The notes beneath the pieces were generated by a model that made no database searches, had not been told where the DNA came from, and worked only from the letters and a program-made list of their open reading frames with translations. A program made the translations under genes and the position numbers. 64,000 bases of DNA from Octopus sinensis (Eukaryota), in assembly GCF_006345805.1 (NCBI RefSeq), contig NC_042997.1:164362001-164426000 (forward strand), in the 5' to 3' direction. Below are positions 25,001-49,000 of the stretch, piece by piece (position 1 is the first letter of the stretch; each line of letters begins with the position of its first letter).

Positions 25001-28000
25001 TATTTTGAACATCTGTAGTAAATGATTGTATGTTAATAACAAAGTGCCTTTGTCTTTAAGTGAAGAAACACTGAAAAAGTACTAAAATAGGGGAGTTGTA
25101 ATTGATTGTAGCATAGTTGAAATTAAATTCCAATTCATAAGTCCTCTGACCCCAACTATTCATAGTGTAGATATTTTGAGATTAGAAAAAAGCACTCTGC
25201 ATACTGTTTCACAGATATATCAAATTTTAGACGTCTTATGTTAAGTTGGCTTTTCAGGAATATTTTACAGATAAGTCTGCTTTTGAATGCAACAGAAAAT
25301 TTTCTTCCGGGAAAATATACTGCAAATTCTTTGTCTATTGTTACAAGAACTAGGGGTTTATGGACAGAATTCCTGCATAAACCTTTTTTTTTTTCTTCGT
25401 AATTTCTGACATTAAAATTCAAGTGTATCTAACTTATTAGATACATATTATTGTTGTTTTTAACATGCACTTTTCTATGCTTGCATTGGTTGGGTGGAAT
25501 TTGTTGAGGTAGATTTTCTACTGCCAGATGCCCATCTTGTCACCAACCTTCACCTGTTCCGAAGTGAGGTGATATTTCCTCATGACCACATATTTTTATG
25601 TAAGATTGGAAATGAATGACACCACTTTCGTAAGAAGTGAAGGCAAGGCTGGGACATATAGGCACACACACACACACACACACACACACTCTCTCATGTG
25701 TGATGTGTTTCTTTCAGTTTCTGTCTACCAAATGCATTCACAAGGCTTTCATCAGTTCAGGGCTACAATAGAAGACACCTGTCCGAGGTTCTACACAGTG
25801 GTATGAAACTTTAACCTTTTGGTTGGTTTAGCAACTAAACAGTTATGCCTGCACCTCAAAGTTAAGCAAATAGAAACAGTTGTGAATGTGTTCTTCATCA
25901 TTAATTTTGTTGTTTTTCAATTTTTTTTTTTTCATTTTTTTTTCTATACTTGCATTAAATTAGCTTACACTTGTCACTGTCATTTTTCATCTGGCAAACC
26001 AACAACAAAGTCATCAAGTGATGGATGGTGTGTCTTATCATTTATCATTTCTTTCTACTCCTTGCTGATGTCATAGATTCAATAGTTCAACAGGATTTAA
26101 CAGGTCAGAGGATCACATCTTGTTTCAGTTCTGGCTTAGTTTCTATGGTTGGATGCTCATCTAACACAGCATACATTCTTTTCATGGCACTAGCATTATA
26201 GAGGTTGTCTTGCCCACAACAAAACTAAAGGTATCCCTTAAAACTTTGTGTTGTTTTTGCTTCATTTACCAACCACTTTATAGAGTGCTTTTTTTTTTCA
26301 TGCACTAATAGTCGTGAAATCACCTTGTAACTCTGAGGGTGAAAGTGCATTAATAGACAGTGATGATATTTGGTGAGGTGCTGTTAGAAGTTACAGTATG
26401 ATGGAAGGAATGGATTTGTTGTTGTGAGGAGGTGGTGGTTGTGGAGAGAGTTGCGGGGTGGGGGTGGGGGCTGAGGAGAGCACAGAGAGAATGGTGAGTG
26501 AAGTTTGCAAGACTGAAATACCACCCCTCTGCATTTGAGCATCATGATTTAGAAGACTAGAGAAAGAAGGGTAGCAGGGTATGTATAGGTTGGGTGGCAT
26601 GGTATTATGTGTAGAGGAAGAGATGAAGAAATTGAGGATATAAGGTATAGAAAGAGCTGAGGATGCAGTAAGTACACATAGAATATTTTCATGGCAATTA
26701 TGAGTGGCTTAGTATGATTAGTAGAATGTGTGTATACATATACACAGAATTTTGCATGTTACTTTAATTAAATAGCACCCTTTCTGTTATCACTCACTTA
26801 ACAGCATGGACTGAGTCCATTTTATTGTGCATTGCACCAAAGAGGTGGTTTTTCAGGTCTAAAGAAGCTCCTCAACTATCATTCTTGAATTTAATATTTT
26901 ATAAAGATATCAACACATATGTTGAATCACTGTTTTAAACTCAAATTCAACCACAATGCAATCTCACTTGCATGTAAAACCTTGAGAAACTGACCATTTT
27001 TAGAATTTACTTGTTATATTGATATAAAAATATAGTCTGTAACTTAGAGCAAACTCATTGAATCATTTACAGCGTTAGGTGTGGTTCAACATAAAAATTG
27101 TCTCCATTATGTAGGCAGAGAGGTTGGAGTTGCAAATATTCTTGGGCAGTCTTTTTAGCACTGAATAGGAGATATTTAGGGTTTGAAAAGTTACAAAAGA
27201 AGTTCTCATGTTTGGTGCTGAGAAGGGGTGGCTATGCTATCCTCCAACATATACTACAATATGTAATCCAAAGTAAATGGATAAAATATTCTAAAGTTTA
27301 CTTCCTTTTACATGTATGTGTAGGACCACTCATGGCTTTCTGGTTAACTTTGCAACCACATGGTTTCAGGTTCAGTCTCACTGCATGGCATCATGGGCCA
27401 ATGTCTTCTACTGAGCCCCCTAGTGTACCAGTGCCTTGTGACTGAATTCAGTAAATGGAAAATGTTTAGAATCCTGTTCTGTGTATGTGCATGCATGCAT
27501 GCATCTTTGTTTGTTGCTCTCTACTTGACAACTGATATTAGTTTGTTCACGTCTGTGTAACTTAGTGGTTCATGAAAAAGAGAAACTGATAGAGTATCAG
27601 GCAAAAATAAGCACCAGGGGTTGATTTGGTTAACTAAACTCAGGTTAGTGCCCCAACATGTCTATAGTCCAATGACTGTAAAAGAGAGAGAGAATGTGTG
27701 TGTGTGTTTTAATAAAAATTGCTTATCTTGTCTTCATCTTCCATCCATTCCATCAATATTTCTCAGATATTCTTTCAGAGTTGCCATTTTTAAAGTACAA
27801 TTCTTAGACTTGTGGGCAGTGCTACATACATGAAATATAAATAGAAATATGATTAGCATAGTTTTATCTTTCAGAAGTCAATAACCATTTAACCATTTGT
27901 ACAACTTGCTCTCTGACCTGTTGCTGATATAACATAGTTGCAAACTGGCAGCAACAGTTTGAGTTATGATTTACAATTTGTAAACTGATTCCTGATCACA

Positions 28001-31000
28001 ATTGGGTTTTGCTGTTCTACTTCCTACTTCAAGTTCTTTACCTTTTAGTCTGAATCCAGAACATTACTTTGTGTATAATTACTGTAATAAAATAGATAAT
28101 GTTCCTAGCTTGCTCATCCGATATCCTTTATTGTTAACTTGTGTTCCCTAGATAATTTTAAACAATTTGATACTTTCCCATAATTTCAATGTGAGTGTAA
28201 AAAATGTAAAAATTTGGGTTAAAAATTGAAATAATATTTTATTTCCTTTCATTTTAGATTCGGGTTGATAGTTTCGACTACATTGGTGTTGGTAATTCAA
28301 CAAACAAAAAAGATTCCCAAGCAAATGCTGCTAGGGATTTTGTCCAGTTCTTAGTTCGGCAGGGACAGGTCCAACAATCAGAAGTGCCTACTGTAAGTAC
28401 ATATCTGGTCTTCAGTCTTTTAGAAAACTTTAAAAAAAGTTGTTTTTTAATTAACAATATTTGCATCTTAGATATGTCAAGTTTACATTAATATTCTATT
28501 ATTGTTAGCATTCTTAGAGATGTAGTGTATCTTCACAATTCATTAGGTTGTTTACTATATATATAATGTCCATCTTCCATGCAAGCATGAATAGGACTGT
28601 TGACAGGAGCTGGCCAGGTAGATGACTACCTTAGGCTACTGTGTCTGTTTTGCAGAGTTTTTGTTGCTGGATGCCCTTCCTAACACCAACCACTCTACTG
28701 AGTGGACCGAGTGTTTTTATGTGGCACCAATGTGTTTATATATAATAATAAATTAATGTTGATTAACATTTAAGAATTTTCACTGCAAGATCTTCATGTC
28801 AACTTCAGAATAGCTTTTAAATAGTTCTGTTTCGCCTGGCACCAGTGCAGGTGGCACGTAAAAAGCACCCACTACACTCATGGAGTGGTTGGCGTTAGGA
28901 AGGGCATCCAGCTGTAGAAACATTGCCAGATGAGACCGGAGCCTGGTGCAGCCTTCTGGCTTCCCAGATCCCCGGTCGAACCGTCCAACCTATGCTAGCA
29001 TGGAGAACGGACGTTAAACGATGATGATGATGATAATATATGAAGAAGCTGTTGACAGAAATATAATATGCATTGCTATTTTGTATTTCACCTCTTCAAA
29101 ATTGCTATTGTATGATAAATTAATAACTATGTGCATTATTAATGATATAAACTAGAAGACATTTAAAAATAAAATTTTAGCTAAGACCATGAATCACAAA
29201 TAATATGTAATGGTAAAGTACAATTTTATCAATTCCCTTTTGTATTCTTTTATCTTTCAGTTAACTGTTGGCATGGGTGCTGGGACAGCAGAAACTGTGT
29301 CTGGAAATGACACACCTGCAGATGATATGACTGATTCTGGAATATCTTCTGGTGGCTGTAAGTTAATTCTTTCTATACATTTCGATTTTAGAAAAAAACA
29401 GTTTGTTAATGAAGAATTTACTTTAAACAAATATCTTCTTTCTTGATAGCTTTCCCTGGATTAGACGCTAACAGAGACATTCCTGCTTATCAAAGGGGCC
29501 CACCAATGAGTTATTTGGACCGACTTGCAGAAAAAAGGAAATTGGAAGAAGTAATTATTTTTTTATCATTTTTCTTGATTTTTGCTGTCAGTGTCTACAT
29601 TAATTTACCATATTTAGTTGAAGTATTGAGTGTGAAGTGGTGGTGGTGGACTTGTTTCATAATTGTTCTCTGTTAAGTTTAGGGCAAGTGGAAACATTTT
29701 TTTTAGTTAAGAAGTTTAAATTTGCGACTACATAGTGCCAGGTTCAATCCCTTATGCTGTATCTTGTACAAATGCCTTCTACCATAGCCTTGGGCTGATC
29801 AATCCTTGTGAGTGAAATTTGGTAGATGGAAACTGGAAATAAATCTGAAGGATAAATCATGCTAGTACCACTGTCTGACCCTTGGGCGTCTTTAGCAGGT
29901 TTGATTGTTTTAAGAATTCAGCACAGTCAGCATTGGTAGCCCTAAAAAAGCTTAGGGTTTTATCCTACCTTCTCTGACCAAACCTACAAAAAACAAAAAC
30001 AAAAAAAAAGATGCAAATGTTGTGTGAGCTTTGTTTCCTTTTGTATTTGAATAAAATGGAAGACAAAGATCATATTCATATCAATATAATTTGAAAGTAG
30101 CTTTTAATGTGGTTATTTATTATAACTAATAGAAAATATTTCCATGTACAAGAACTTCCAATAATGTTTGGCAAAGAAGAATGGATCATTGATAGATAAC
30201 TATTTCATTTTATAGTAGTCCTGTAGCAATGAAGCAAGAACTAAATGTTTTGATATCTATTACCATATTTGTTTAAATACACTTTTGCTTCAGTTAACTC
30301 TTAGCTCTTAGTAAAAATTAAATAATTTTGCCATTATTAAAATGGGTTTTTTGTAACTTAGATTTTAACAGAATGTTTTAATTTAGATCATTTTAACCTT
30401 TTTGATACTAACCCATCTGAGATTGCCCTCTGGTTCTACATGATGCAAACTCCATGTTTAAAGTGATCTAAATTAAAAACTTTCATCAAAATGGACTGTT
30501 AATTTATGTTCCAAATACCAGCATAATAATGATAGTTATTTTTCTGTTCTCCATTAGTTTCAAAATTGAAACAAAAGCAGTGTAACAGAAATATGGAAAT
30601 GAAAGGGATAGTTTGTATCATAAAACTATAGATGATTTTTGATGGGTTGGTATGAAAAGGCTTTAAAAGCCTTTTATAAAAATTAGAATTATGATGATGA
30701 TAATGTTATTTTAGAGATGTCAGAAACTAAATATTTAGAAGGTTATATACTGACCTGACGCTAGTTGCACAAGCTGGTACTGGTTGTTATTTAGAACTAG
30801 ATTAACCCTGATCAAAGCCTTTCTAAGTTTGAATATCACTTTTTTTCCCTCTGCTCAAACATATTAACTATAGAACAATGTTGTCTAATATGTCCTTCCT
30901 GTTTTTTAAGACAGTAAAGTGAGATCGAGCAAGTTGAGCAACCATGTAAAGAATCTTTTTTTTTTTTTATTCGCTCTTAATGATATTAAGCTTAGATCGT

Positions 31001-34000
31001 TGATATTTGGAATATCTTTTTCTAAAGATGGGCACATTGCAGTTAGCTGGAATCTGTGATGGAACTAATAGATCTTTTTGCATAGAATATAGCACAAGTG
31101 AACTCGATCTCAGTTTTCGGTGACATGACACTGCTAATAATAAACCTAATTTACTTATGTTAGATATAATTTGGCTATTAGATTTCTCATTACTATTCTG
31201 ATTTTATTTCTTCAGTCAGAAGATCTTGACTTGAATGCGAGTATTCACGGCAACTGGACACTGGAAAATGCTAAAAGCAGACTCCATCAATTTCTGCAGC
31301 AAAATAAAATACAAGCTGATTATAAATATTCTATGATAGGTCCAGATCATAATCGGTAAGTTAAAATGTTGGGTATTGTTTCCTTGTGTTGAATCTCTAT
31401 TGACTCCTGAAAATTTTATTACTTTTTCATGAAATTTTGGGTTTTAAAGTTCAAAATTCTTAAACAGATTTTATTTCATGTGTAAACTACAAACTTAGTA
31501 TAACTTTTTCAACATTGGAATATATTTACGTATATTATATAGTAGTTACAAGTCATTCACTAGTATGAGTAAACAGTAAATTTAATGCTTATTTATAATA
31601 GCAGTAATTTAGTTAATTATAGTAGTTAGTCTTATATTTTTTCCATCTGATGAAAATGTAAAACAAAACAGTTGTACTTTTTTCATGTGTTCTCAATTAT
31701 ATATATACTTTTAAAAATTATTAACTTTGTTTTAATTTTCTCTCTTATAATCACCATTAGCAAATGTTAAGAAATACTAAAATAAACATAGTTTACCATC
31801 GCTACAAAATTTGCTCTAATTATGCAACTCTAATTTCTGGTTTGACTTAGAATTACATTCGTATTATTTTATTTTTAAGTTCCCATATCTCGTTTAAAAT
31901 TATTGAGGAATACTATCTTTTGCCAATAATTACTTTCTTGTCAAGATTTAAGACCAACTTTGTCAAAAAATTCTTTATATCTGCTATCTGTTGGTTTGTA
32001 GTCTATACTAGATTAATATTTAGTGTTTATTTTGTAATTAGTTAATTGGATTATTACATGATTTTTAATAGAAATAATTGTAAGATATTCCTCTGATCAT
32101 TCTTTGGAATTTTTATTGGTGGGGATTTCTTGTAATGGAACTTTTTTTTATATTTAAATAAAGTATTTTCTGTTAAATGCTTTCAATAAAGTTTGTTTCA
32201 GGAAACAATATTTATCTACAATGCTTGGGTCTGCTAAAAGAAAATGCATTATCTGCATGAAATATTTGTGAATGTTTGTGTCATTTTGTGTGTTAAGATT
32301 ATTTAAATTAAAAAAAAGTTTATGCTCGGTAAGATAATGTCTTAAGGTACTGGTAATTCTCTAGTTAACTATTTGACTTGTAATTTTAATCAGATTATTT
32401 AGATATAGTTACTGAAAAACACTATATTTCATTTAGAAATTTTATTCTTGGCTTTTTTTTTTTAACTCAATAGCAACTTAATACTTCTGGTGCAATTGAC
32501 TTGCTGTTGATGTTTGTTTAATCTGTTTATTATATATTTTGTAACAAATTATATTTGTAGTTTTAAAAAGTAAGGCCTAAAACTTAGTTTCTAAAAATAG
32601 TGATTAAATTATAATAATTGAATGAATTTAAAAAGAAAAATCTTTTGATCAAGGATTCTTTATTTGAAAGATTGAAAGTTCAGTTTTTTAAAACAATTTT
32701 TCAAAGCTTAGACTAATTAAAGTTTTCTTTTTTAATTGCTTAAATTTGCAAAATATTTCACCATTAGTCAATTTTGCTTTACAGCTTAAGTAAACAGTTA
32801 TGAAAAACTGAAAACAAAACAATTTAATGTTCTACATGTTTGTATAGGGGGTTGGCATAGGTGTAAAGGAATAGAAAGAGAAAATTTTAAAGAACTGTTT
32901 TGTGACTACCAACAAGAAGTGGTTCCACTGAATCAATGTATCAACACTAGTTTCAAATGTGTATAGAGTCTTGCACATATAGATTGTCCTATCTACTTTT
33001 CAAATAATGTAAGCAGTTCTGATGAATTTGAATGTAATTATTTTCTCTTGTAAAGACATCCCTAAACTAATACATAACAGTCTTTATGTTTATCTTTTAC
33101 TCATATTCTATTAGTCTCCTTTATTTTGGTCATCACTAGCAACTACCTTCACACATTTGTGTTAATACTACATCTTGAATAAAATTAACTTGGTGTTTTT
33201 TTGTTATTTTCTAAGACAGGAGTGTTATAATTATAGAATATTAAATTATCACTACTGTAAAAGTAGTGTTAATTTTATGTTCTTTTATATTTGTAAATCA
33301 GTGTTAAATTCTCTTGTTCCAGTAGACTCCTTGTTAAACCTTAAATTGATATTACATCCTAGTAACTCAGATGTTTGTATTTTTTAAAGATTTTTTACAT
33401 TGTTGTTGTTGTTTGTTCAACTGGTTTAATTGGCTTGTTTCAATACATGCTTTTTTTAATACTATAAATGAATAGATTTAGATTATTTATTCTCTAGCTG
33501 TTTGGTAGGTTACAACATCTCTACCTTTGGTAAGAAGCATGTCTAATTGTTGTTAGTGATGCTGTTAGTTTTGCTGTTTACACCTTGGTGCTGCTGTGCT
33601 GTCTGACCTGATATTTGCTAGACAACGCCTGCTTGCGTGGCTTTTTTCTATTAAAATGTAATAGAACTGAAATGACTACAGCTGCAAATAGCTAAAATGT
33701 AATTCGTCAGATTTACTGTTTGTTATACTCCTCTTTATTCATGTTGATAATAAACCAATATGAAGCATTTAATTTATTAAATATATAGAATATACAAGTG
33801 AAAGTTTGTATATTGATAGGAATAGTAGGCTTTCTGACATTTTCTCAAAATTCTTCTGGCTTTCAGTGTTGCTATAATTTCTATAATTTAACGGGTTTAA
33901 TAATGTAAGAAAGAAAGGTATTTTATTCTATTTATTCTATATAATTCAGTATTAACTTTCATTATTTAATAAGATTACAATCATGATTTGCCAGAATGAT

Positions 34001-37000
34001 GGATCAGTGGACTAGCTTTCTTGGTAGGTGATACTTTAAAGCATTTGGGGTATAATAATGGGTAAAATGTTTTTATTTAATGATGTAATAAATGTTAATT
34101 GTAATTTAAGTTGGTAATTTACATATGATATGGAATAGTCAAGCCAGTTACTGGTATTGTAATGTAAAATCAAAATAGGAATATTTTTTCATAAAGATAC
34201 ATTCTCAATTAATGTTAATATGAAAGAAAACATATTGTGTTGATGTAAAATTAGGATAAGAATGTGTTGCAATTTCTGGAATTAATGTTGACTAAGGACT
34301 ATATTTCAGTACTTTTGTCACATATAATTGAAACTTTATTACTACTTTAGAAAAAAAATTATACCAAATATAACTATGAAAGCAAGAAAAAATTTTTGAA
34401 ATGTCAAAAAGGAATTCATTCTGTGTAATATGAGCTTCCATAGATAGATGACATAGTGTAATTATTTCACTCATTAAAGCTAAGTGTTGTGTTTTTGCAA
34501 ATCAAGGAAAGTAATTTATTTATTAGCAAAATTTAGGAGACCTCATGAGAATTAGATCATGGAAATATGTTCAGTTTTCATTCTTGATCTTCAGAAACTA
34601 ATTCTGTTTAGAAGATGTCCATGTTCAGTATGAGTGGGGAATAGATGGTAGCAAGGCAATATTTTGCATGTTGTGCATCTTGAATGTTTGAGTAAATGAA
34701 TTCAGTTATTTTTGTAGTAAAAGTCCAAGTAAAACCAGAAATCTAATTCAAGGCTTAAGTTAATAAAAAAAAAAGACTATCTTCATTCAAATGTTAAGTT
34801 ACATAACCTTTGCATGCTGGAAGTATTTTGTTGTAAAAGAATGAAAATTCAGGACTTTCAGCAAGTGAAGAATAAGAAGAAACATAAATATATATTTATA
34901 TACACACAGGTTGTTTTAATCTTAAAACAGCTATTGGTTCTATAAAGTAAAACTGCCAATGTTAGCATGTTCACATTTAATTTAATACCTTTCACCATAA
35001 TCTTATATGAGCTTTGCTTCATGGTGAAAACTTATTTTATTTAATTACTAAAAATTCCTGATTATTTTCAAATTGAAACACTTAGTGTATGTCAACAACA
35101 TAAAAGGTAATGAGAGGTAAAAAGAAGACAACTGAAAATGACTGCCTGTTCTAAATGAGAGTTTATTATACAAGTGAAAGTTGCTAAAATGGTTTACTAC
35201 TGCCTGGTTTGGTTGTGTGTCTGAGTAACTGTCTGAGAAAATAGCTAGTGTTTGATTTTAGTGGTAATTATGCTAAAGGTAAGTCATGGAATACTTGAAA
35301 TATATGGCTTAAAAAGTTTGCGTTAAGAATGGAATAAGTAGGATGTGGTTGTATGACCATTTTATAAAAGTATTAAAAATAATTGTTTCTTTTTTCTAGC
35401 TAGATCTTATTCCACAAAATGAGATTATTTGTTTTAATTTAAGGCAAACTGATTTTACATTGACTAGTTATTTTCATTTCAATTTTTAATTAAAAAAAAA
35501 AAATTAACATCAACTTCTTGCATTCAATTTGAAAACAAAAATGCTATATGGATATGTTTAACACCTATTTTTTTTTCTAATCAATTCTTTAAAAGCATAG
35601 TTTCTAATATATTTTCTTTCCCTCTCGATTCCCTCTTTCTGTGGTTCTATCAATGCAGTGAGTTTGTCTTTACAGTACTCTTAGGTTGCACAGCTACAAG
35701 TGCCTGGACTTGCAACAACAATATTTAATAATCTGTGGCACTGAAAGACTGATTTCCTTTTCAGTCGTTATGCCACTGAAACCGACGACAGTATCATTCT
35801 TATTAGGTTTGTCCCACAACATTTATCAATTTGGATTATTTAGTAATCATAGCCAAAGCTCATAAAAGTAATCTGCTGAAAATTTTATTCTGTTTTATTT
35901 TTATATGAAAATATTCTGTTTTCTATTTCTTATACTTTTCTATTTTCTATTTAGACATTTATTTTTTCTAAAATGTTATTTTTAAAAAAATGTTTATTAT
36001 ATGCTACTCTATATACCAAGAACAATATAGAAAATATGTAATTGTATATGTTTATAGACTTTAAGAAAACATGCATTCAAATCTAACTCATAATATTTGT
36101 TGCTCATAGGTGCTGTTTTATTTTTCACTATTTGTCCTAATTAAATGGTATATTTAAATATTTTCAATGTGTATTAGAAACTTAAAGGTTTTAGTAGTTT
36201 TAAAATGAGTTCATGCTATATTTAAACATAAAATTTGATCATCTTAAGGATTTTAACTCATGAAGTTTGAACAGTGCCATTAGGAAGTTTATGCTGGTTT
36301 TGCACATAAATATTGTGGTCCCACTTAATCATAGTTACAAGAATGATAATTATTTCTTTTGTCAAAATACAAGGCCATGTTTGTGCTCAATGTAATTCAT
36401 TCAATTTCTTGCCTGTATTTGTTTAACCCATAAAAATTCTAAATAGAATCAAATATTCAGGTACCAAATTACATTGGTATTGTTTCCTATCCTTCATGGG
36501 CATAAATCCTGAGATTTTTAAGAAAGGAGGAAATTAAATGTTTTAAAACATTCAAGAATTGAAATCGAGTCACAGGCTCCGCTGGCCAAAAATTTGACTA
36601 TACTCAATGATTCTGGCCAAATGATAATGACTATGATGACGTGAAAACAATGGTGCTGCTGTTTCAAAATTGCAGTGCTACCCTGTTAATAAAATTAAAG
36701 AATATATATAAAAAAGGAATTTCAAGAATTAATTATTTGAAATTCTAAATTCATTACGTTGATACGTAGTAGCTCCTCTTGATCATCTTCCTCTATATTA
36801 TTGTTTAAATGTTGGGTGTTTACTTAGTAATTGTATCTGCTTTCAATTTTTTTCTGTCATTAGTTGATTGAAAAGTTTGTGGCATATTCTGTATCATTTT
36901 TACTGGCCTTTCTGCATGAAAATAATTTCAGTTTGGTAAAGATAATCTACATTTTAGCGCAATGCCATCAGCTGAATATGTCCTGTTAATCACTTTTGAT

Positions 37001-40000
37001 AAAACACTAATATTAATCCTCATATTAGAAATTGACACATTAGATTCTATGCCCTGATTTTTTTTTGATTTTTTTACTTTGGTTAACATATCTACAGCAG
37101 ATTGTTAGAGCTTTGAGTAAAAGAAACAACCAATACATTGTCTGATACTTGTTGATAATGTTATAATTGTCTACATTTGTGTTTGTTATGTTAGTGGCAA
37201 GTATCTTTCAGATGTATTATTTTTTAAAAATAAGTATTGCATAATAAGTATAACTTATTTTTCTGTTGCTGCTAATGCCAGTTATTAACATTTCCATTTA
37301 GTAAGTAGAACATGATTATATCAGGTCTTATCATTGTAATGTTAAAACAATTGTTATATTACCTTGTAATAAATTAAGAAGACTAGGAAAGTTAAATTTC
37401 CTGTTGTTAGCTTCCTTAAAAATTGGAATACTTACAATAAAATGCCATTATATACACTTACAGATATTGGTCTTGTTGGTTGTTAAATAAAAAAATTTAA
37501 AGCTGCATCTTGGTTTCAACAGAACTTTTGCCAAGTTTGCAAAAGAAAAAAAAAACTGAAAATCAGTTGGGTAAAAATAACACTTGTCATTTAATTTTTT
37601 TTTTCATATCAGCTATTTAAAATGAGATAGCTATATTTAATGTAGATCCTTGTGAAGTTTTATGAATAAGCAGTAATAATAGAAATAAATAGCTTAATGT
37701 ATTGGTGTAATAATCATTGTTGGTTGGTAGATTTTGAAGTCTTATACTATTCTATGATGTATGAAGATGCTATCAATCTGTTATTATTGACTTGACAAAT
37801 AGATTACTCTCTTTACGAAGTGATTTCTGAAAAAGAAAAAAAACCCAAAAAACCATTATTGTATTACATGGAAGGGATTGACTTTGATAATTGGAACAGG
37901 TAATTGTCCTTTATCCAGTAATTTTTGCAAGTGTCTGTTGAAAATATTGTGTAGATTAATGCAGTACTCATACAAAGGATATGCAATTATACAAACCACA
38001 CACACATACACAAAATATGATATACAGAGCAACAGAGTTGCCTAGTTTTTCTCTATTACTGTGTGTTCCAGATGCAAAAGATCTTTTGAATGGTGAAGCA
38101 TTATGAAACTCAACCAACTTGGGAAAAATGAACATAAAATTTATGTCTGTGTGTTTGTATTTAGTTTACATATGAGCACAAAACCATGATGTTGTCTCAT
38201 AACATACTTTTCTGTAGCAACTAGACATTTTGATTAAAATTTCCTGTTTCTGCAGGTAAATAAATAATAAAAAGCTGTGGAACAATGAAAAATAGAAAAT
38301 TATCAACAAAATAAGGTGTTTAGAAGGGAAAAGAACTGAGTATGCATGGTATCCAATTTTATAAAATATTTTGTGCATACTTATTTTTATTAATCCTTTC
38401 CTTATCTTTATATTTTTAAACACCTTGTTTTGTTTGTAATTTTCTGTTTCTGCCTTGTTACTTTTATGTTATTATAGTTGATTATTAATGTGGATATGAC
38501 AACCAAAAAATGAAATTTTAATTTGGCCATTGAGTTATTGATTTCATTTGATTTGTATTTCAACTACAACTGTAAACAAAATAAATTGTTGATAACAAAT
38601 GAGTATGCATCTGAAATATTAAAGATAGTCCTATTATAGTTTGAGGTAATGATTCGAACAACACCACATTTACTTTTTTTATATATTTCATTTAAAATTA
38701 ATGTGATTACTTGAAATATTTGGTTATGGAACAAATGAAAGTAATAAGCATTCAGGTTACAAGAAATGGAGGATTTGGCAGGGCTTTTTCATTGTGCTTA
38801 ACTGAATTCCACATTTTATATTAATGTAGATCTTTCAAAATAGGATAATGCATGCAAATTCAGAGTTCTGGCAATGTAAATAAATTCAAATACTATTATA
38901 GGTATTAGCTAAAACAGGTATTAAATAGTGCTTGTTTTATTGGCTATGCATGACTAGGATGACAAGTGGTTTTACTACTTATCTTTAATGTTATCAATTT
39001 TTATAATTTTAATGTTTTCATAGCCATTTTTTTAGTTATTTATTGTGACCTTTGTTTGCTATTTGTTTAAAAGGATTTGACCTTATTTGGTATTTTCATC
39101 TCAACTAAAATAAGATTTATCTGTTGAAAATTGACAAAGAAATCTAAAAACATTAACCAAGTGAGTGGTATCACTCTCATGGTAATGGATGTTCATTTGT
39201 TAATAAGTCTGATACTGTCGTTGTTTGACCCTTGTCCTTTTACCATGCAACTTAACTTACCATCATGGCGTTTAACCCAGAAAATTTCATTGCAAGAAAC
39301 AGCTTTCTACATGAAACATTTGAAGTGTGCAGCTCTTATTCTATAACATTAAGCTGGCATTATGCATGCTGTGGTTTCCAGACATAATTTAATTTCCTTA
39401 ATGCTATTTTAAGTTTCAAAAATTTTCCTTTAATATGAAATGATTTGAGATATTATAAGAATGTCTTAAAATTTGTTCCAGTAATCACTTAATGATAAGA
39501 AATTCATAAAGTTATTTTGTATAAATTCTTTGTGTCTGGAATATGGTTTAATATCTGTTAAGTAAATCTATGAATGATGATTAAATATACTATATAGTAT
39601 ACCTTACCATTGTGTTTTCCAGACTAAAAGGAGATTGTTTTATGCTACATTATCTGTAATATCAACAGATCTGATATATTAGATCTACTTATATTAAATA
39701 TAAATCCTCTCTCTCTCTCAAAAAAAAAAAAAACTTTTTTAGTGATTTGTAAAAGGACAAAGGAATGCATATTGCAGCTTAAAAGAAAAAGTTCTGTAGA
39801 ATTTGAGGTGCATTCTTCTGAGATTTTTTTTATGTTGAGTTGATTTCTTGCCATAAAATTTAATTTTATCTTAGCCAATTTTCTTACCTATAGAAAATCT
39901 AAGATAAAAGAAAAAAAATTGTTCAATTATTTGTATGCACTAAATGCATACATAAATATTAAATATCTAAGATGGTAAAGTTGCAATTCTTCACTGATTG

Positions 40001-43000
40001 TTTGTCCTGTATTCCTGCTGTAGTGGGATGGATTTTTTATGTCCCCCACTAGAGCAGTAAAGGGCTTTAGAAGGGTTAATATATTTGTTTGTCTGTCATG
40101 CAGCAGGCACTCATAAAGTTGTTGCAGTCGTTGCCTCTCGTTCCTCCTCAACAGAATCTTACCATTGTGGCACTTGTATGCTGTGCAACCCAACTGCGTG
40201 TCTTCCTTGCTAGTTAAAGACAGCCCTGTATCTTCTCAGGTAAGTTATTTCCTGCTCTGCAGAAAACTGCAGCCCTTTTATTTCAGCATTATAGTGTACT
40301 ACAAAGGAAACCAGCTGGAAAAGAATAAAATAACGCAGTCATATTTATATATATTCTCTTCTGCAAAGATTCTTATTGTTTGAAAATGTTCTATCACAGC
40401 AGTACAGTCACTTAGACAATTCCACTACTTTTTAAAAAATTTTTTTTATTTTTACCTTCTTTGTATTAGCTGATATTAAATATTTTATTTTCAAATCACA
40501 AAGATGGATAGCTCTGAAAAGAAGCATTTATCACAATAATACCTTCTATTGAAATAACTGTTTTTAATTCATTTTTATCATCCTTTTTTTTTCTATTTTT
40601 TAAGTTTGAAGTTAGTTTCATCTAGTTAATTTTTAAAAGAATTAATATTGCTTTCATCTAAAAGTTAACAAAACTGAAATATTTATTGGGCTGTTACACC
40701 TGATTTGGTGAAGTTGAATGTTGGAAGTGAGTTTTAAGAGTGAAATTGTAATTTCTCCTCCCTTATGCTTTAGATGCAGTCTATTGATATGCTAAATTCT
40801 TACAATAATAATTGTATCTTTAGGAGATCAAATATAAAGATCTTTGTTTAAGTACTCTGGCAGTTTATGCAAAAGACTCTGCAGGTTTTTGGATAAACTA
40901 TTATTGCAGCATTATCATCAGTCCTACTAGAAATATTCTATTGCTATTTGGAGCAATAATTTTGATTTTTCATCTTTATATATATATATATATATCATAC
41001 AACTTCTCAAAATTTAAGTACAAGAAATTTCTTCTTAGACTCCTTAAGTTACAAATCATTATAAACATTTTCATTTAGGAACCAGCCTTGAAACATTTTG
41101 AATGGTTTCAATAAACAAATTTGCCACTAAAATACATAATTTTTATATTTGTTACAGTTTATCACAAACTTTATTCAGCAGTCTTTATTTCACTTCCTCC
41201 AAACAAACTACTGAAAATATTGGATGTTTAATCAGTAGGTCTCAAGCAGATGAAATGGGTGTTTTGCTTGTATGTATGTATTTATGTGAGTGAGTGAAGT
41301 GGATAACTGGTGGAATACATTGTTATGAGGTGTTTTTAAATAACTAACTTATTAATCTCAAATTGTACAAAGAAACATTAGAATTATTTCACTAAGTAAG
41401 AGTAAAATATTGTTTAAGGACACAGCAAATGGAATGGTCAATTTATTCTGGTGTGCACCTGTTAGCTTGATAAACTTAGATTTAAATATTGATGAAATAA
41501 TTCTTTGAAATAAGGTAAATATGATTTAGCTTGTTTTTCTGCAACAAAATGCAAAATAATTCGAAAATATCTTAATGATGCCTGGGATTTTTTAAAATAT
41601 GTAAATAGTTTTCATTCTGTTTCATTTTAAATGAAGTGATCAAAAATGGATTTAAAGTTCCTAGTTATTGAGTATTTAAGTAGTAATGTTTCCTGTATCA
41701 ATTCTTGTGTAATCACAAATGTTATGCTCTATTGCTTCCACAAATAATTTTTACTCAGAACCCTAAAGTAAGCCACAGTCTGATCATTCAACCAGCTAGA
41801 AATATCCCCTATATAACATTCTACCTAAGTAATGAAATGACATATTAGATAATGTACCCCAAGATAACTTGGATGTAGTTGGCATTAGGAATAATATAAA
41901 GCTATTAAGAGATTTTTTTCTAAATATTTGATAACTTGCTCGTCTAAAAAAATACCATTCAAAGTAATCTAAGAGCCTGGCTACTTGGCTCATTTTAGGA
42001 AAATGATGTTTGAAATCCTTTCTGTAAGAATTATTTTGTAGTAGAATATTATCTTCTTATTTTTTTCTGGCAATAGTCCAGATGAAAAGAGTTGATGTAA
42101 CATATTAGTGCTTATTAGGAGAAAAATCAATTCACTTGAAGCGCATTTTATATTTGATTTTTTATCTTTTTAGCTATTTTTGCATTAAGTGTTGTAAGAA
42201 TTATTTGATGGTTTGGTTGTAGCTGAATAGTAACTACTCAATTACTGGTTTCGATAATTGTTAAGTTTACGAGATTGTAATGAAATTTGATTAGTGCTTA
42301 TCTTTTTAAATAAATGCTTTCAGTTGTTATTTATTAATCATCTCTAATCAAACAGACTGCTTATGGTAGTGGTTAGTTTGATAGCAGCAATGGCTCAACA
42401 TATTAGATCTACTCTTTTTTTTTTTAACTTATTAAAGTTTAGTGATAGGGATTGCTATGTGAATGACTTCTTTGCCTTCAGAATGAAAGGAAGGTGTGGA
42501 AAATAAAGCTTTTAGAGTTCTCATTTCATAGCATTACGACATACGAATGCATAATAATGTAATGTCATTCCATTTGTTCTCTAATGCTAAACCAAGTACT
42601 TATTTATTGACTAGATAGATTCAAGACTATTTTATTTGACCTGGTACGTGTTGTTTTTAGTTTAAGCAAGTTTTAACGATATATAAATATTCATTCATTC
42701 GTACCAAGGGCGATAAATATTAGAAATACCAAGAGGAGTTTTCTCCCCATCTCGTTGTTATATTGGGTCATCCTATAAATAATGTGGCTTTTTCAATTGC
42801 ATGAAAAGCCGGAGGAGGACAGGATATATACCTGCATCAACTTGCTATAAATGCAAGTAGCTATTTTACCTTGTCCTTGTTTCTGCAAATTTTGAAGAAT
42901 GCTGTTCGATTTTAGCAGTTACTTTTTTAAAGCTCTAATGGAAGTGACAAAGCATATTCAGCCTATTTTGCTTTATGAGTTCAGTAAAGTTAATGCACCA

Positions 43001-46000
43001 GAAAGTGCAGGGAATATTAATGCAGTATATGGGGATTGGACATTAAGTGTAAGCCAGTGTCAATGGTGGTTCCAGAAGTTCTGAACCAGGAACTACAGCC
43101 TGGAAGATCTGTGGAGTTTGATGAGGACAGCCTGCAAATCTTGGAACAAAATCCCATCATAATTGTTGAGGAACTAGCAGAGTAGCTTGAATTTGGTCAT
43201 TCAACCACTGATCAACACTTGCGTGTCATTGGAAAAGTCAGCAAATTGGATCAGTGGGTTCCTTACAAACTTTCTGAGTCTAATCACATGGAGAGACTGA
43301 ATGTGTGCTCTTCTTTGCTGTCATGTCTCACAAATGAAGCTTTTTGGGACCAAATAGTGGACGGGTGACAGGTTCTCTATAAAAGTGTTGGGCACTGAAA
43401 ACTGGGAAAAGGAGGAACACCAACACCCCAGGCTAAAATTATTCACCCACATAAGGTGTTATCTGTTTGGTGGAATATGAAAGGTTTAGTCCACCTTGAA
43501 CTTTTAAATCCAAATCAAATGATAACAAAGGAGATATACTGCAAGCAGCTTAAGTAGGCGCTAGAAGTAAAGCGACCATCTTTGGTTCCAAGATGAAAAG
43601 TGAATGCTCGGTCACATAGAGCGAGGATGACATTCCATAGGTTGGAGCAATTTAAATGGGAAAGTATGCCCCACCTACCATATTCGCCAGACATTACTCA
43701 TCTGATTATCATGAATTCTGTAGATGAGGTCAGAACAGTACTGGAGGAGTATTTTTCGTCATGGACAAGTGAATTTTGGAAGAGCATTGTAAAAAATGAA
43801 GTAGATTATATTTTAGAGCAAAAAAGAATTTTGTTTATCTTAATTTTGAAAAGTAAAAGAAGTATAAGAAAACCGCGTTATTTATGGAGAAAAGGATTAT
43901 CGAAAATGTTGGTTAGCCTACGCATTTTACTGTTTTTAATATGTGCTTTGGGAAAAAGAAGACTATATATTAAGTGTGGTATGGATCTATACATCAGGAA
44001 CCTAGCACATTAAATTTACTAGAATTTTTTTTTTTTACTGGCCCCTAACAATAGATGGTGGGGTGTTGTCTTGTGTGTGTATGTACCTGGTATATGAAAG
44101 TTGTGGAGAGCATCTGCATATACTGCTGTGAATTGGTTTAGTAAATAGTTTCTGTGTTTGAATGTTTTGAAACACTTTAGATTTTAAGAGAAAATATAGA
44201 AAAGCTGGTCTTATTTAAATTCCACACTATCTTTGTGAGGATGTAGAACTTTTAGCACTTGGAAGTGTAATCAAGTTTATGGATTTGTATAGCTTTCAGT
44301 ACCAATGCTTTGGTGCAGTCCTCCGAGATCTTCCAGATTTTAATTACTGCTTTTTCATGTTTTTATTTGTCCAGTATTTCAGTTGATACATAGAAGCAAT
44401 TTAGGTCTGTTGTATTGCTTCCATTTCATCAGTGAAGTTGGTATTATAAAGTGCCTTTTGAGAGGAGTAATTTTATTTGAAAACTAAGAACAAGTATCTT
44501 TTGACTGGTTGTTGTTTTCTAAATATTCTCAAGATTCCATCCTGCTAGTAGTTTGCAAATTGTCATATTTCATTAATATAACTCTGTAATAGTAACATTA
44601 CTTGTTATCTGTATGTGTCACCTGGATTCTGATTAGGTATTGCATTACCTTGTACATCTACGTTGCAATGTGTTACAAGGCTCATAAGGAATGTGTTGTT
44701 TCCATCAAATCAGTGTCTTTCTGTAGGTTTTTGACACCATTGAGACTCTTATTTACTTTTGATATTTTAATGTTATTGTTAGTAAAGATGGTAGTTCTGA
44801 GTAACCAGGGTTATATTTCAGAGAGCTGTTGAAATCAGCTTTACAAATATTTGAAGTTTTAAGTTTAGGGATGGAGTTATCTTCTAGAATATCTCAAAAG
44901 CTTTCTGTTTAAGTTGCATCTTTCATTAGAAGAAAAAGAAAAAAGTATTTGGTTTTTGGTAGCTATAAACATTTCTAACACATTGAAATTATGGTGATTA
45001 CAAAGTACTGAATTAGACTTGATCTGCCTTGAAGTTCTTTTTTTGTTTTTAAGATTTAAATAAACTATTATTGAAGAAAGAATTCAAAAACGATATAATC
45101 AGTGATCTACTTGCTTTAAAGATAGGTCAGCCAAACCTTTTTATTTTTCCTTTAGCATCAATGTGGCCTTTGTTTTATTTTTTATGTAGAAAATTTTTAA
45201 TTCTATAAACCCTTTTGAAGACTTGTCAATGTAGCAGTGTTTTTGAATCCTTAAAATTTTCATAATCAAAACCGTGCTCATTCTAAAATAGCATTTTCAT
45301 GTGTGCATGTATATGCACATGTGTCTATGGGTGTAGTGTGTATGTATGTAAGTTGTTTGTGTGTGTACATGTATGTGTACTTGCATGTGTACAGGTGGCC
45401 CATAAATTGGCTTAATATATAATATTATAGTAATGCTATATATATATTACATATATATATATATAAAGCATAATTTTTCCTGCATTCTTGCTTTCATTGT
45501 TCTTGTTATATTAAATTTGGTTCTTGGATAGATCTTTTTCTTTTGTTATTAACATTCTTATCTTATTGTTCTTTTGTAGGAGCTTCATTGCCGAGATGAA
45601 AATCTATGTCAAATCTATTGGGAAGCGTAAGTATTTTAAAAGAATTAAAGATGTTTCTTTTATTAATGTTATATATTTTTCTGTTTTATAGACTGATTCA
45701 AAATGTAACAATGCTTTACAATTTTATTTCAAAATGTCCAAGCAGCTAAAATCTTTAATGCCCATTTGACGAAAAGAAAAACATTCTCATGTATAATTAT
45801 TTATAACTACTTTTTAACTTTCATTTGATTTTCTTTTTTTCTTTTCTCTCTCATGTTAGATGTATCATCACGAGAGCATGGTTCAAATAAACAAGTGGCT
45901 TCCAAATCATGTGCTTTGTCTTTGGTGCGCCAACTCTATCACATGAATGTTATTGAAGCTTACACCGGTTTGAAGAAAAAGAAAGATGCTGATAAGGTAT

Positions 46001-49000
46001 GTTTTTAAGGAATTTTATCACTCTAGTAAAGCCTTTCCTTGGGTGCATTTTGGAATAATTATGTGGAGAGTTGTAGTTGTACCACTGGTGTTTGAACAGT
46101 ACCTGTATACTATGTATCACATATTCTTTTGGTTCTTGCTTCATAGAACATCTATTGGGAAAATTTCAAATTTTTTAGGTGATTACTCATAATTGTCTCT
46201 TTCAATGTCGTTATTGCTTGCAAACCCAACACACTGTTGTGTATTGTGACATAGAGCCTACAAAATGCTTTAGGTCTTGATAAAATACCTTTATTCCATA
46301 TATCATGTTTTTAAAAAGTAATCGTTACACTTAAACTATTTGTAAATATTTTTACTATTGGGTGTAAACAACGCATTGTACTGTGGGGTGGTTTTAAAAA
46401 AGAAAGGAAGGATTTGAAATGCATGTGTAGATGTTTACTAATTCAAGTGGGAGCAGGTCAAGTGAAATTGTTTGTGGAAGAAATGGGAGTCTTATGGTAT
46501 TGTACAAGCACACAGTTGGAAAAATATATAATGGTGGGAATGACATGGAGAATTGAATGATGGACTACAGGCTTAAGATATCTGTAGCTATTTTGTCAAT
46601 GAATGCTGACCAGTTTCTCATATATATATACATATACACTACAACATAGAATTGACATTTAATACAGCAAATGACATTTTTAGAGATGCAGGTAAAGTGA
46701 TCTGTAACATGGAAAGTGGACTTGGTGGAGCTATGTAGGATGGTAATGTTGTGGAAAGGTGGTTTTTGAATAGAAGTGGAAGCAGCAAAAGATCCACCTT
46801 AAGTGTGGCAAAATCTAAAAGAACTATGCACTAGGAGATTGCCCAGTGTTGTTTTTGAAGGAAGGGTACTCAGAAAAAATAATGGTAGTAAGGTTGGAAT
46901 GGAAGAATTGAAGTTGTGTAACTGAATGAAAAGTGTAGAAGAAAGCACCAAGCTGGTGGTGAGGTGGAATTGAATCAAGAGGATAGAAATGCAGCCAATA
47001 ACTAAGAGTGTGTGGCAACAAGGTATACTGATAACTGGTTGGAAGTATTCATGTTGGTAGAAGTGGCATACATGGGATGATTAGGCAAAATTGAGATTGA
47101 AGTGAAATCAGTAGGTTCTGAAATGATGCAAGTGGAGAAATTGTTATGGTCATAAGAAACAGATCTCAAAGAGGTTGACAGAGGTGTTAGAGGGTAAATA
47201 AATTTTAAGTTGAGATGGTAGGAGATGCGTTTTTTTTTGTTTTTTTTTTGTGAGTAAAGGAAATGGCACCGATAACAACTATAGCTGTAGAATGAGATGG
47301 CTAACAGACAAGTTTGTATAGGTAAGGCTCATTGTAGTGTGCATGGCCACCACAGTAAAGTGATTCTAAAAGTGTCTGTAGGAAAAGCAGTTGAAGGTTT
47401 GCTGTTGGTTTTAAGAAAGCAAAAGGCAATGAGTTCTGGTCAAGAGATGCTGGCCCTTCTGAGTATGAAAATAGTCCACAGTGTTGTGACACAAACTGTG
47501 TGTTCATTGGAGTGGGTGTTTCGTAAAGCAACTGGTTTCTGGATGCAGTGTGTTTAGTGTTAAGCTTGTTGCTTATTGCAATACAAGAATTATTTGATTC
47601 TGGTCCAGCTCTAGAATTCATCCACAAACAGGTGGAACCCCAGCAAAACACTCAGTTTCAGAGGATAATTGGTCTGTGGATAATCACAGCCATATGTGAT
47701 GGTGCAATGGATTCAAAGATGGGTGAGAAAATGTCAAAGAAGTTAACTGAGATAGTGGATGTAAAGGGCAGTGGAGTGAAAACTAAAATGATGTGCTGGT
47801 GGGGTAGGAAATAGTATTTGTAAATGTCTCAGCCTAATGTAGAGAGCTGGTAGTTAGCAGAGTGGGTGATAGTGTGCATGAGCAAATGAGGTAAGTTGGT
47901 CTTATCCTTCTGCCTTTATAGAGGAGGCAGAAGGGTAAGATTGTGGTTAAACTACAACTATGGAAAATAATGTAGCTGAAATGTTTTGGTAATATATGGA
48001 TAAATAGATGCAAGGATGTATGGTGGTAACTAAGAAGAAAAGGATTAGAAATTAAGGTTGTGATGCAGATTGTAGAAAGAGAGAGAGAGAAAACTTTATG
48101 CTCAGCATAGAGAAGATACATCTCAGGAAGTTGGTGTAATAGAAGAAATCCAGTATCAATGTAATTCAAGATGGGTTTGCATCTGTACAGTTTTCATATA
48201 TATACATGTATCATCATCATTTGACATCCAGCTCATGCAAGCATATTAAAAATGAACTTAAAATTTGACTATTATAATCTACTAGTTCTGTGTGTATATT
48301 GTGTGGTTGAGAATTTAATGATAATAATACAGGTATTTGAACCAAGTGTGCTTTTACTTCATATCATTTACAGATACCACCATTTGAAGTTTCCATTTGT
48401 CCTGAATTGGAAACTAGTCTGGATGAAGCTTTGAATGCATGGAATATTGAGCCTATTCAAGTAGTAAGTTGTTTACTTATTATTAAATAATAAATTTACA
48501 GTATTTTAACTTGATGCCTTTTACATAACATTTTCTCATTAACCATTTAATTTCTATCTATATTTTAAAGCCTGCTGAAATTTCCCCGGAGCCATTCTCA
48601 CTAGTAACTCATACTCAACTGGATGAATTTGTTCCTGCACCTAAACGTCCTCAACCAGGTGTGGTTTCTTGGTGTCCACCACAACCCAACTGGAACCCTT
48701 GGACAAATTGTAACATCGACGAAGGTCCTTTGGCTCATGTGAGTAAAGCATTTTATTGTTGCAAGAGAGTGCCATGTGTCTCCAAAATAAAAGAATATAA
48801 ATAATGATGATATGAAAGGAGTGGCAGAAAGCTGAAAGTATGTGTGGAATTCTTGTATTGTGTCAAGAAGTTTGGGTTCTTGTTCTAGTGGAAGTAACCT
48901 CTTTACTGGCATATCTTTTTTTTTTTTAACTATTATATATACATAAAAGGAACTGCTTTGCCTGAGCAGGTTTTTCAACTAATGGTCTGATCTTTATGTA

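Follow-up and report, generated by a model that had tools for sequence, protein, structure and literature searches.

Can the gene for an RNA helicase carry, inside one of its own introns, the duplex by which its expression is set? This question is raised by a 64,000-nt stretch of Octopus sinensis contig NC_042997.1 (hereafter the window), whose + strand holds the DHX9 (RNA helicase A) gene and in which an earlier note had proposed that the intron splitting the dsRBD2 domain encloses a frameshifting cassette exon within a nested RNA structure. The mechanism that we propose is that an upstream intronic arm, transcribed 4.5 kb earlier, would pair with the body of the frameshifting exon and with the sequence beside its branch point, and that further helices would fold the spacer away, such that the default is skipping and full-length DHX9. 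Opening of this clamp would instead lead to inclusion of the exon, a frame shift, a premature stop and nonsense-mediated decay (NMD). The likeliest opener would be DHX9 itself, in which case the loop would sense helicase activity. We place the probability of a poison exon in octopus, with inclusion, NMD and repression by the fold taken together as one model, at about 0.8. That DHX9 opens the clamp, giving negative feedback that reads helicase activity, is a more tentative proposal that we hold at a little short of even odds. The structure-clamped poison exon is supported by local conservation peaks, by the position of human exon 6A and by a covarying equivalent in another invertebrate group, here called clade X.

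Mapping of the gene by tblastn, counting only pieces above 85% identity, gave 22 pieces that match Octopus vulgaris DHX9 at 86-100% identity. In Pfam, the orthologue from O. bimaculoides (P0085) possesses the dsRBD, DExH, HA2 and OB domains, which places it in the DHX9 family. The exon-skipping joint across the whole intron (31356-45579) was present in two of the four sequencing runs examined. Within this intron, the candidate exon (40155-40239) is bounded by canonical splice sites, namely a pyrimidine tract with a CAG acceptor and a CAG/GTAAGT donor, and this donor is the higher of the only two in the intron scoring at least 6. Inclusion is predicted to add 28 open codons and to shift the frame into a stop at 45888-45890, which lies 106 nt upstream of the next junction with many junctions further downstream and is thus beyond the 50-nt distance expected for NMD; an alternative AG at 40126-40127 would give a 112-nt exon with an identical frame shift. 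The gene and the 85-nt frameshifting exon described in the earlier note are confirmed. The RefSeq O. bimaculoides DHX9 isoform X2 (XP_014769190.1) begins at the first Met past the intron, and this agrees with an interrupted-frame model, other causes being possible. Separately, a cuttlefish-like Logan protein (P0093) starts MLKA joined to the RSFIAEM exon and thus has a different exon spliced to the downstream side of the intron.

Folding of the intron revealed an exon body that is paired, a branch point that is bracketed, and a pyrimidine tract and AG that are looped out. The pairing of the exon body is due to A-mid (35684-35704:40169-40190), a 21-bp helix with one bulge whose arm lies 4.5 kb upstream. 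In a penalised scan of the whole intron A-mid is the strongest long-range helix, at -27.6 versus -14.0 to -23.9 for the best of each of 76 block-shuffled introns, such that it stands above 76 of 76 controls. It forms part of the duplex earlier drawn between A-5' (35654-35719) and 40118-40230 (-60.6 kcal, z -6.7), which outscores all 2899 window tiles; the A-mid and A-inner helices of that duplex stood, whereas its outer part has three competing partners. The unconstrained minimum free energy fold of 7 kb (33500-40450) recovers A-mid, A-inner, the A-3':D helix, a closing helix (39225-39240:40059-40079) and a long irregular rod, and for A-inner, A-3':D, the closing helix and the rod no intron tile paired better (67 to 2362 tiles tested per helix). 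The rod (39220-40085, ~860 nt) has a z of -11.5, is matched by none of 20 shuffles, and takes in the local stems that had been seen over 39229-40065. A-3':D (35783-35806 with 39200-39223), likewise as proposed, has a z of -7.3 with 0 of 2019 tiles better, and taken alone with the whole intron searched it is at chance level (-16.0 versus a shuffle median near -17).

Segment C and the donor fared differently. The pairing of C (33540-33693) with 40243-40418 has a z of only -0.24 as a whole and of -1.5 and -1.3 for its parts C1 and C3, with C1 (33588-33598) pairing weakly to 40395-40405 and with a register that differs between folds. The best C helix, C2 (33626-33641:40095-40108; z -4.2, 0 of 2359 tiles better), had been missed and crosses the nest; singly, C helices are at chance level when the whole intron is searched. 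Complementarity beyond chance was thus found for A-mid, the rod and the hairpins, and not for C1 or C3. The 5' splice site of the exon, which had been described as paired, has no long-range helix (40241-40243 unpaired at 0.9-1.0). The geometry first proposed needs correction accordingly: the exon body and branch-point flanks are paired, the donor is unpaired, and C is unstable or crossing.

The arms do not derive from repeats. C, A, D and the exon have no dispersed copy in genome G000 (by a search that omits very common words), as their lack of recognisable repeat origin had suggested, and we rejected the idea that the arms are inverted dispersed repeats (short interspersed or miniature inverted-repeat transposable elements, SINE/MITE) on this single-copy status. 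The only repeat family found within 33400-46050 is a mariner-like transposon remnant at 42759-43887 (Pfam Transposase_1), ~75% identical to dozens of G000 copies. Rfam gave no match of note, with 4 hits at E 0.84-3.8 and none at the gathering score.

Sequencing runs from close relatives, diverged by 4-5%, showed conservation peaks above the intron background for arm A and the cassette region. In run X15 the piece over arm A had 4 differences in 587 nt versus 4.9% over the other 7 pieces (P 5e-9, one run), and in run X16 the piece over the rod end and exon had 12 differences in 805 nt versus 4.2% over the other 7 pieces (P 1e-5, one run). Runs labelled as four organisms contain 17 of 17 sampled words of 40095-40300 in a search that ranks the best holders first; this 206-nt stretch is unspliced in 20 of 24 runs among those listed, and no listed run that contains it is recorded as RNA. 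Among sites of possible editing, position 39801 in the rod reads as G in the two spliced runs, which represent two organisms, and as A in the window and in the unspliced run, making it a candidate A-to-I editing site or shared allele. Further A>G differences occur at 35819, 38297 and 38298 in one run; the latter two, read in run X14, are possibly edited and lie in a 45-nt inverted repeat at 38290-38449. Run-wide A>G counts in spliced runs X14 and X16 were not above T>C, and A-mid has no A-C mismatch and no edit among 40 of 726 rows listed.

Beyond octopus, human DHX9 offers a counterpart in the same intron. A primer named 'DHX9_EX6A FW alternative splicing', as it appears in the supplement excerpt of PMC7072589, reads P-D-H-N-R and then four bases, which by eye we take as the start of exon 6A. 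Human exon 6A thus occupies the same intron position and phase as the octopus exon. Passages of PMC4741636 describe exon 6A as having its own stop (UAA), as UPF1-sensitive and as rising with slow RNA polymerase II (Pol II), while the portion of PMC7072589 that treats its control reports repression by hnRNPM and SRSF3; term searches of the latter returned nothing on RNA structure or autoregulation. The two exons share gene and intron (after DHNR, phase 2) and, on our model of the octopus exon, an NMD-type cassette and default skipping, and differ in that human 6A has an internal stop whereas the octopus exon is open and shifts the frame.

A protein survey extended this comparison, with 239 of 272 proteins carrying the DHNR-junction motif. 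Of these, 63 continue with the sequence of the normal exon. In 169 the motif is followed by a stop or by a T-initial-codon residue, which is the pattern expected from read-through into a GT intron, and 7 continue otherwise. The intron position at this junction is widespread. Three of the seven unusual continuations come from Logan contigs (P0002, bivalve-like; P0100 and P0155, tick-like), and these, known from protein sequence alone, are short and stop-bearing and cannot be retained intron. We discounted the other four (P0114, P0158, P0197 and P0250), which may be artefacts of the gene model or of the frame.

A metagenome scan for the DHNR exon gave 53 loci, 25 of which have a conserved block near the intron start and 17 of those also a second block; of the 8 single-block contigs, 7 give <1.3 kb of intron and L041 gives 2.96 kb. 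These 25 loci make up clade X, a group of marine invertebrates in which the exon matches DHX9 of bivalves, gastropods and annelids at 74-80% identity. We left out L018, which does not differ from L017 across the region, and L029 (a cut near-duplicate), and later L034 (a duplicate), which took the set from 15 loci to 14. In all 15 loci an exon of 65-103 nt lies between a conserved acceptor and a conserved donor; it is poison in every case, and where its length is divisible by three it holds a stop in 6 of 6 (by our own rough estimate, chance ~0.17 alone). In clade X the first block pairs with the acceptor and exon start. Across 28 pairs in 14 loci (392 cells), 348 keep the pair, 21 have one-sided changes, 5 have two-sided changes, 17 break and 1 is a gap, whereas slid registers pair only 23-42%. 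A permutation test showed a better fit for arms of the same species than for arms taken across species (0 of 20000, relatedness not corrected), and identity is 89% in paired columns versus 59% at third codon positions. Most loci have a second, nested arm whose pairing lies 33-105 nt above the acceptor, or 349 nt above it in L007; we could not locate this second helix in L032, and in L024 and L025 it was either weak or wrongly placed. In a 9-locus alignment the invariant columns are the splice sites and the arms. Two further observations on these introns are that two conserved local hairpins lie between the long-range arms at approximately intron +100 to +230 (e.g., L008:740-870), like the octopus inter-arm hairpin, and that the introns of L024, L027, L031 and L034 carry large, lineage-specific MITE-like inverted repeats.

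Outside clade X, four loci of unrelated sequence (L010, L047, L052 and L035) each have one strong donor, with the 3' arm of the top helix 170, 100, 57 and 31 nt above it, respectively; in L010, L047 and L052 a second nested helix stands alongside, and there are stops within the candidate exons. For any one locus we put the chance of such an arrangement roughly at 0.08-0.19, given a distance window that was set post hoc; the scans of L047 and L052 had no shuffled controls. L011 has an arm in common with L047 and its contig ends early. Among other loci, the ~490-nt DHNR intron of L039 contains two nested long-range helices above 40 of 40 shuffles with no strong donor found, and the coral-like loci L019-L023 and L028 have a common conserved block within the initial 250 nt of the intron and yielded neither a cassette exon nor a strong helix. 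Judged from these comparisons, the clamp design recurs across loci, with common descent of the folds not shown, and the dsRBD2 intron of DHX9 would be an old site of unproductive splicing.

How such a clamp might work can be considered from its polarity. Repression is favoured because in L010, L047 and clade X the acceptor or tract itself is paired; an arm transcribed ahead of the exon would pair with the acceptor or body as it emerges, making skipping the default. As for what opens it, we favour DHX9 because it is the duplex, and not a motif, that recurs in the gene of a dsRNA (double-stranded RNA) helicase, and a structure recurring without common sequence would suit a dsRNA-binding helicase. 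A precedent is found in excerpts of PMC4710571, where MLE, the fly DHX9 orthologue, is proposed to free para splice sites by unwinding the hairpin in which they are hidden. A broader version, in which a clamped poison exon has served as a DHX9 activity sensor since the bilaterian ancestor, was rebuilt with unrelated sequence per lineage, and is the same switch as human 6A, is speculative and on balance doubtful.

Several observations weigh against a poison exon clamped by its intron and opened by DHX9. No joint to the octopus exon appears among 15 of 144 joints listed from four sequencing runs, which are contigs, with a gap over the exon in run X14 and a joint table dominated by a transposon, and a protein search with the translation of the exon's frame, a weak test, found no candidate. 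The octopus pyrimidine tract and AG are looped out rather than paired. Two of five other introns of octopus DHX9 contain a helix above all of their own shuffles, and a strong helix by itself therefore proves little. In clade X, the 17 of 392 cells that break pairing count against the fold, and the compensatory changes come from that clade, in an equivalent that cannot be aligned with the octopus arms. Profiles of clade X searched against the window by nhmmer gave a best intron hit no better than E 0.94, and because the arms are without sequence similarity, homology of the clade X and octopus folds is not shown; a by-eye likeness of the clade X exon start to 40391-40418 was absent among the nhmmer hits listed and was dropped. 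We did not find the design in the partial, bivalve-like L002 or in L014, L016, L036, L038, L039 or the coral-like loci, several of these introns being partial and a strong donor or pairing being missing. The control of human 6A by Pol II speed, hnRNPM and SRSF3 also speaks for inputs other than DHX9. Splicing events filed under the fused label 'NPL // DHX9' presumably lie in NPL, going by their coordinates. Seven rows of the siDHX9 splicing table of PMC11826090 carry that label and none is 6A, and the table holds no 6A event in 29 of 36 places, in an experiment where DHX9 mRNA dropped only 1.57-fold. Term searches of an inhibitor paper (PMC11831107) retrieved no passage on DHX9 mRNA or feedback.

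These points bear most directly on the alternative that survives best, in which the fold represses the exon and the input is transcription speed, temperature or sequence-specific factors, as for BRD2/BRD3 and human 6A. Human 6A does go up with slow Pol II and is held down by hnRNPM and SRSF3, the BRD2/BRD3 poison exons are governed by paired regions together with elongation rate (in the relevant text of PMC10789245), and the C and A-outer partners lie downstream of the donor in competing registers, which would suit a kinetic window. However, the main arm is made before the exon, so no kinetic window is needed, and such an input does not account for the recurrence, in this one gene, of dsRNA clamps built from unrelated sequences. 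We regard this alternative as unlikely, and it is compatible with the best explanation. Improbable in turn is that ADAR or another dsRNA-binding protein reads the duplexes, with editing or binding tuning DHX9 to dsRNA load, or that DHX9 binding stabilises skipping and the polarity is reversed. Cephalopods are known for heavy RNA editing, the rod provides >100 irregular pairs, and site 39801 is a candidate in two organisms alongside the three A>G sites of one run. Against this stand the A>G counts of X14 and X16, the possibility that the single site is a shared allele, and the lack in A-mid of A-C mismatches and listed edits.

Slightly more improbable still is that the pairing serves only to compact a long intron, or reflects a fold arising by chance or from repeats, and that the exon is a silent pseudo-exon. 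Inclusion was not seen within the limits given above, control introns also have strong helices, and A-3':D and the C helices singly are at chance level intron-wide. Yet the arms are single copy in G000, the helices stop 2.2 kb and 5.1 kb short of the constitutive splice sites, with the best cryptic donor at their centre, and the conservation peaks, the human position match and the clade X covariation all point to the exon. That the region is an independent intronic noncoding RNA or a DNA-level enhancer with incidental exon signals, as the often unspliced 206-nt stretch and GC-rich conserved islands might suggest, is highly improbable given the absence of a notable Rfam match, clade X compensatory changes that argue for RNA pairing, and splice sites among the invariant columns.

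The features of the octopus locus are given in the table below, where the putative branch point follows the consensus YUNAY. Other observations in the gene include a consensus donor AAG/GTAAGT (score 8.8) at 35279-35284, ~370 nt upstream of arm A, which may mark an extra cryptic exon or micro-exon; a local hairpin at 33236-33335 with the best z (-5.0) among the intron's 354 windows; and, in run X16, a backward joint from 35269 to 33280 that is probably a template switch. Other DHX9 introns hold strong inverted pairings of 21014-21077 with 25695-25760, resembling inverted repeat copies, and of 30417-30451 with 30610-30641. A later DHX9 intron contains a broken transposase remnant on the - strand (51060-52460, DDE_Tnp_1_7 match), which we take to be piggyBac-like.

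Table. Features of the DHX9 dsRBD2 intron and its flanking exons in the window.
Feature	Position	Strand	Basis or remark
DHX9 coding exon, first half of dsRBD2, end ...GPDHNR, phase 2	31216..31355	+	tblastn match
dsRBD2 intron, 14,224 nt, phase 2, after GPDHNR	31356..45579	+	position of the human intron with exon 6A
Segment C, GC-rich single-copy island	33540..33693	+	partner uncertain
Arm A, outer part	35650..35683	+	rival partners 40215-40230, 40193-40199, 40361-40383
A-mid arm	35684..35704	+	21-bp helix with exon body 40169-40190
A-inner arm	35707..35719	+	12-bp helix with 40118-40129, directly above pyrimidine tract
Local hairpin between arms	35732..35779	+	z -5.2
A-3' arm	35783..35806	+	partner D
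D	39200..39223	+	partner A-3'
Rod domain	39225..40079	+	closing helix 39225-39240:40059-40079; irregular stem 39246-39399:39628-39985; hairpin 40015-40057 (z -6.6)
C2 partner	40095..40108	+	abuts putative branch point
Putative branch point CTCAT	40110..40114	+	match to YUNAY
A-inner partner (40118-40129), then looped-out pyrimidine tract and acceptor AG	40118..40154	+	
Candidate poison exon, 85 nt, frameshift +1, no internal stop, single copy	40155..40239	+	sequence, splice-site scoring
Consensus donor GTAAGT, largely unpaired	40240..40245	+	fold, donor score
Downstream intronic partners of A-outer (40361-40383) and C (40395-40439)	40361..40439	+	register uncertain
Next constitutive exon, 47 nt, RSFIAEMK...	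45580..45626	+	
Exon after that	45860..45996	+	carries premature stop 45888-45890 of the inclusion isoform

Among the papers listed in the literature searched, subscription journals lying outside it, none described a poison exon in an invertebrate DHX9, a structure surrounding such an exon, or self-regulation of DHX9 through splicing or RNA structure. Already known are human exon 6A, structure-controlled poison exons (BRD2/BRD3) and ancient unproductive splicing (SRSF5); new here are the exon-clamping structure in the octopus DHX9 dsRBD2 intron, its match to the intron of human 6A, and the covarying clade X equivalent. Feedback through poison exons is familiar from sequence-reading splicing factors, and a helicase reading a duplex in its own pre-mRNA would, if our proposal is true, report enzyme activity and not amount. 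On the strength of the shared intron position, DHX9 would join the few genes whose unproductive splicing has been kept across animal phyla, the kept feature being structure and not sequence, and the switch offers a possible mechanism for the silence of human exon 6A. DHX9 is a cancer drug target, as passages of PMC11831107 set out, and if the sensor is ancestral, inhibiting DHX9 should reduce the inclusion of 6A and increase DHX9 mRNA.

Among known systems, BRD2 exon 3b and BRD3 exon 5b offer the closest structural parallel, in that conserved complementary regions control their unproductive splicing and arose independently in related genes (sections of PMC10789245). As proposed for octopus DHX9, long-range intronic pairing sets poison-exon inclusion. 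There, however, the paired regions flank the exon and the product is not an RNA helicase, whereas the arm predicted here pairs with the exon (or acceptor) itself over 4.5 kb within a multi-helix fold. SRSF5 shows ancient unproductive splicing in one orthologous intron across animal phyla (extracts of PMC4379411), and DHX9 would be alike in keeping unproductive splicing in an orthologous intron; SR proteins read sequence, whereas the recurring feature in DHX9 is a duplex. With Drosophila MLE and para, it is again a member of this helicase family that is proposed to make splice sites accessible, by opening a duplex between intron and exon, and the difference is that the target is another gene and the outcome productive splicing. 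ADAR2 self-editing and the Drosha/DGCR8 hairpins are further cases of dsRNA proteins controlling their own transcripts. ADAR1 intron 13 retention has likewise been put forward, in the available portion of a preprint (bioRxiv 10.64898/2026.05.26.727889), as self-substrate feedback. In all of these a dsRNA-acting protein controls its own transcript, as we propose for DHX9, by binding, editing or cleavage, whereas the octopus gene would do so by ATP-driven unwinding of a poison-exon clamp.

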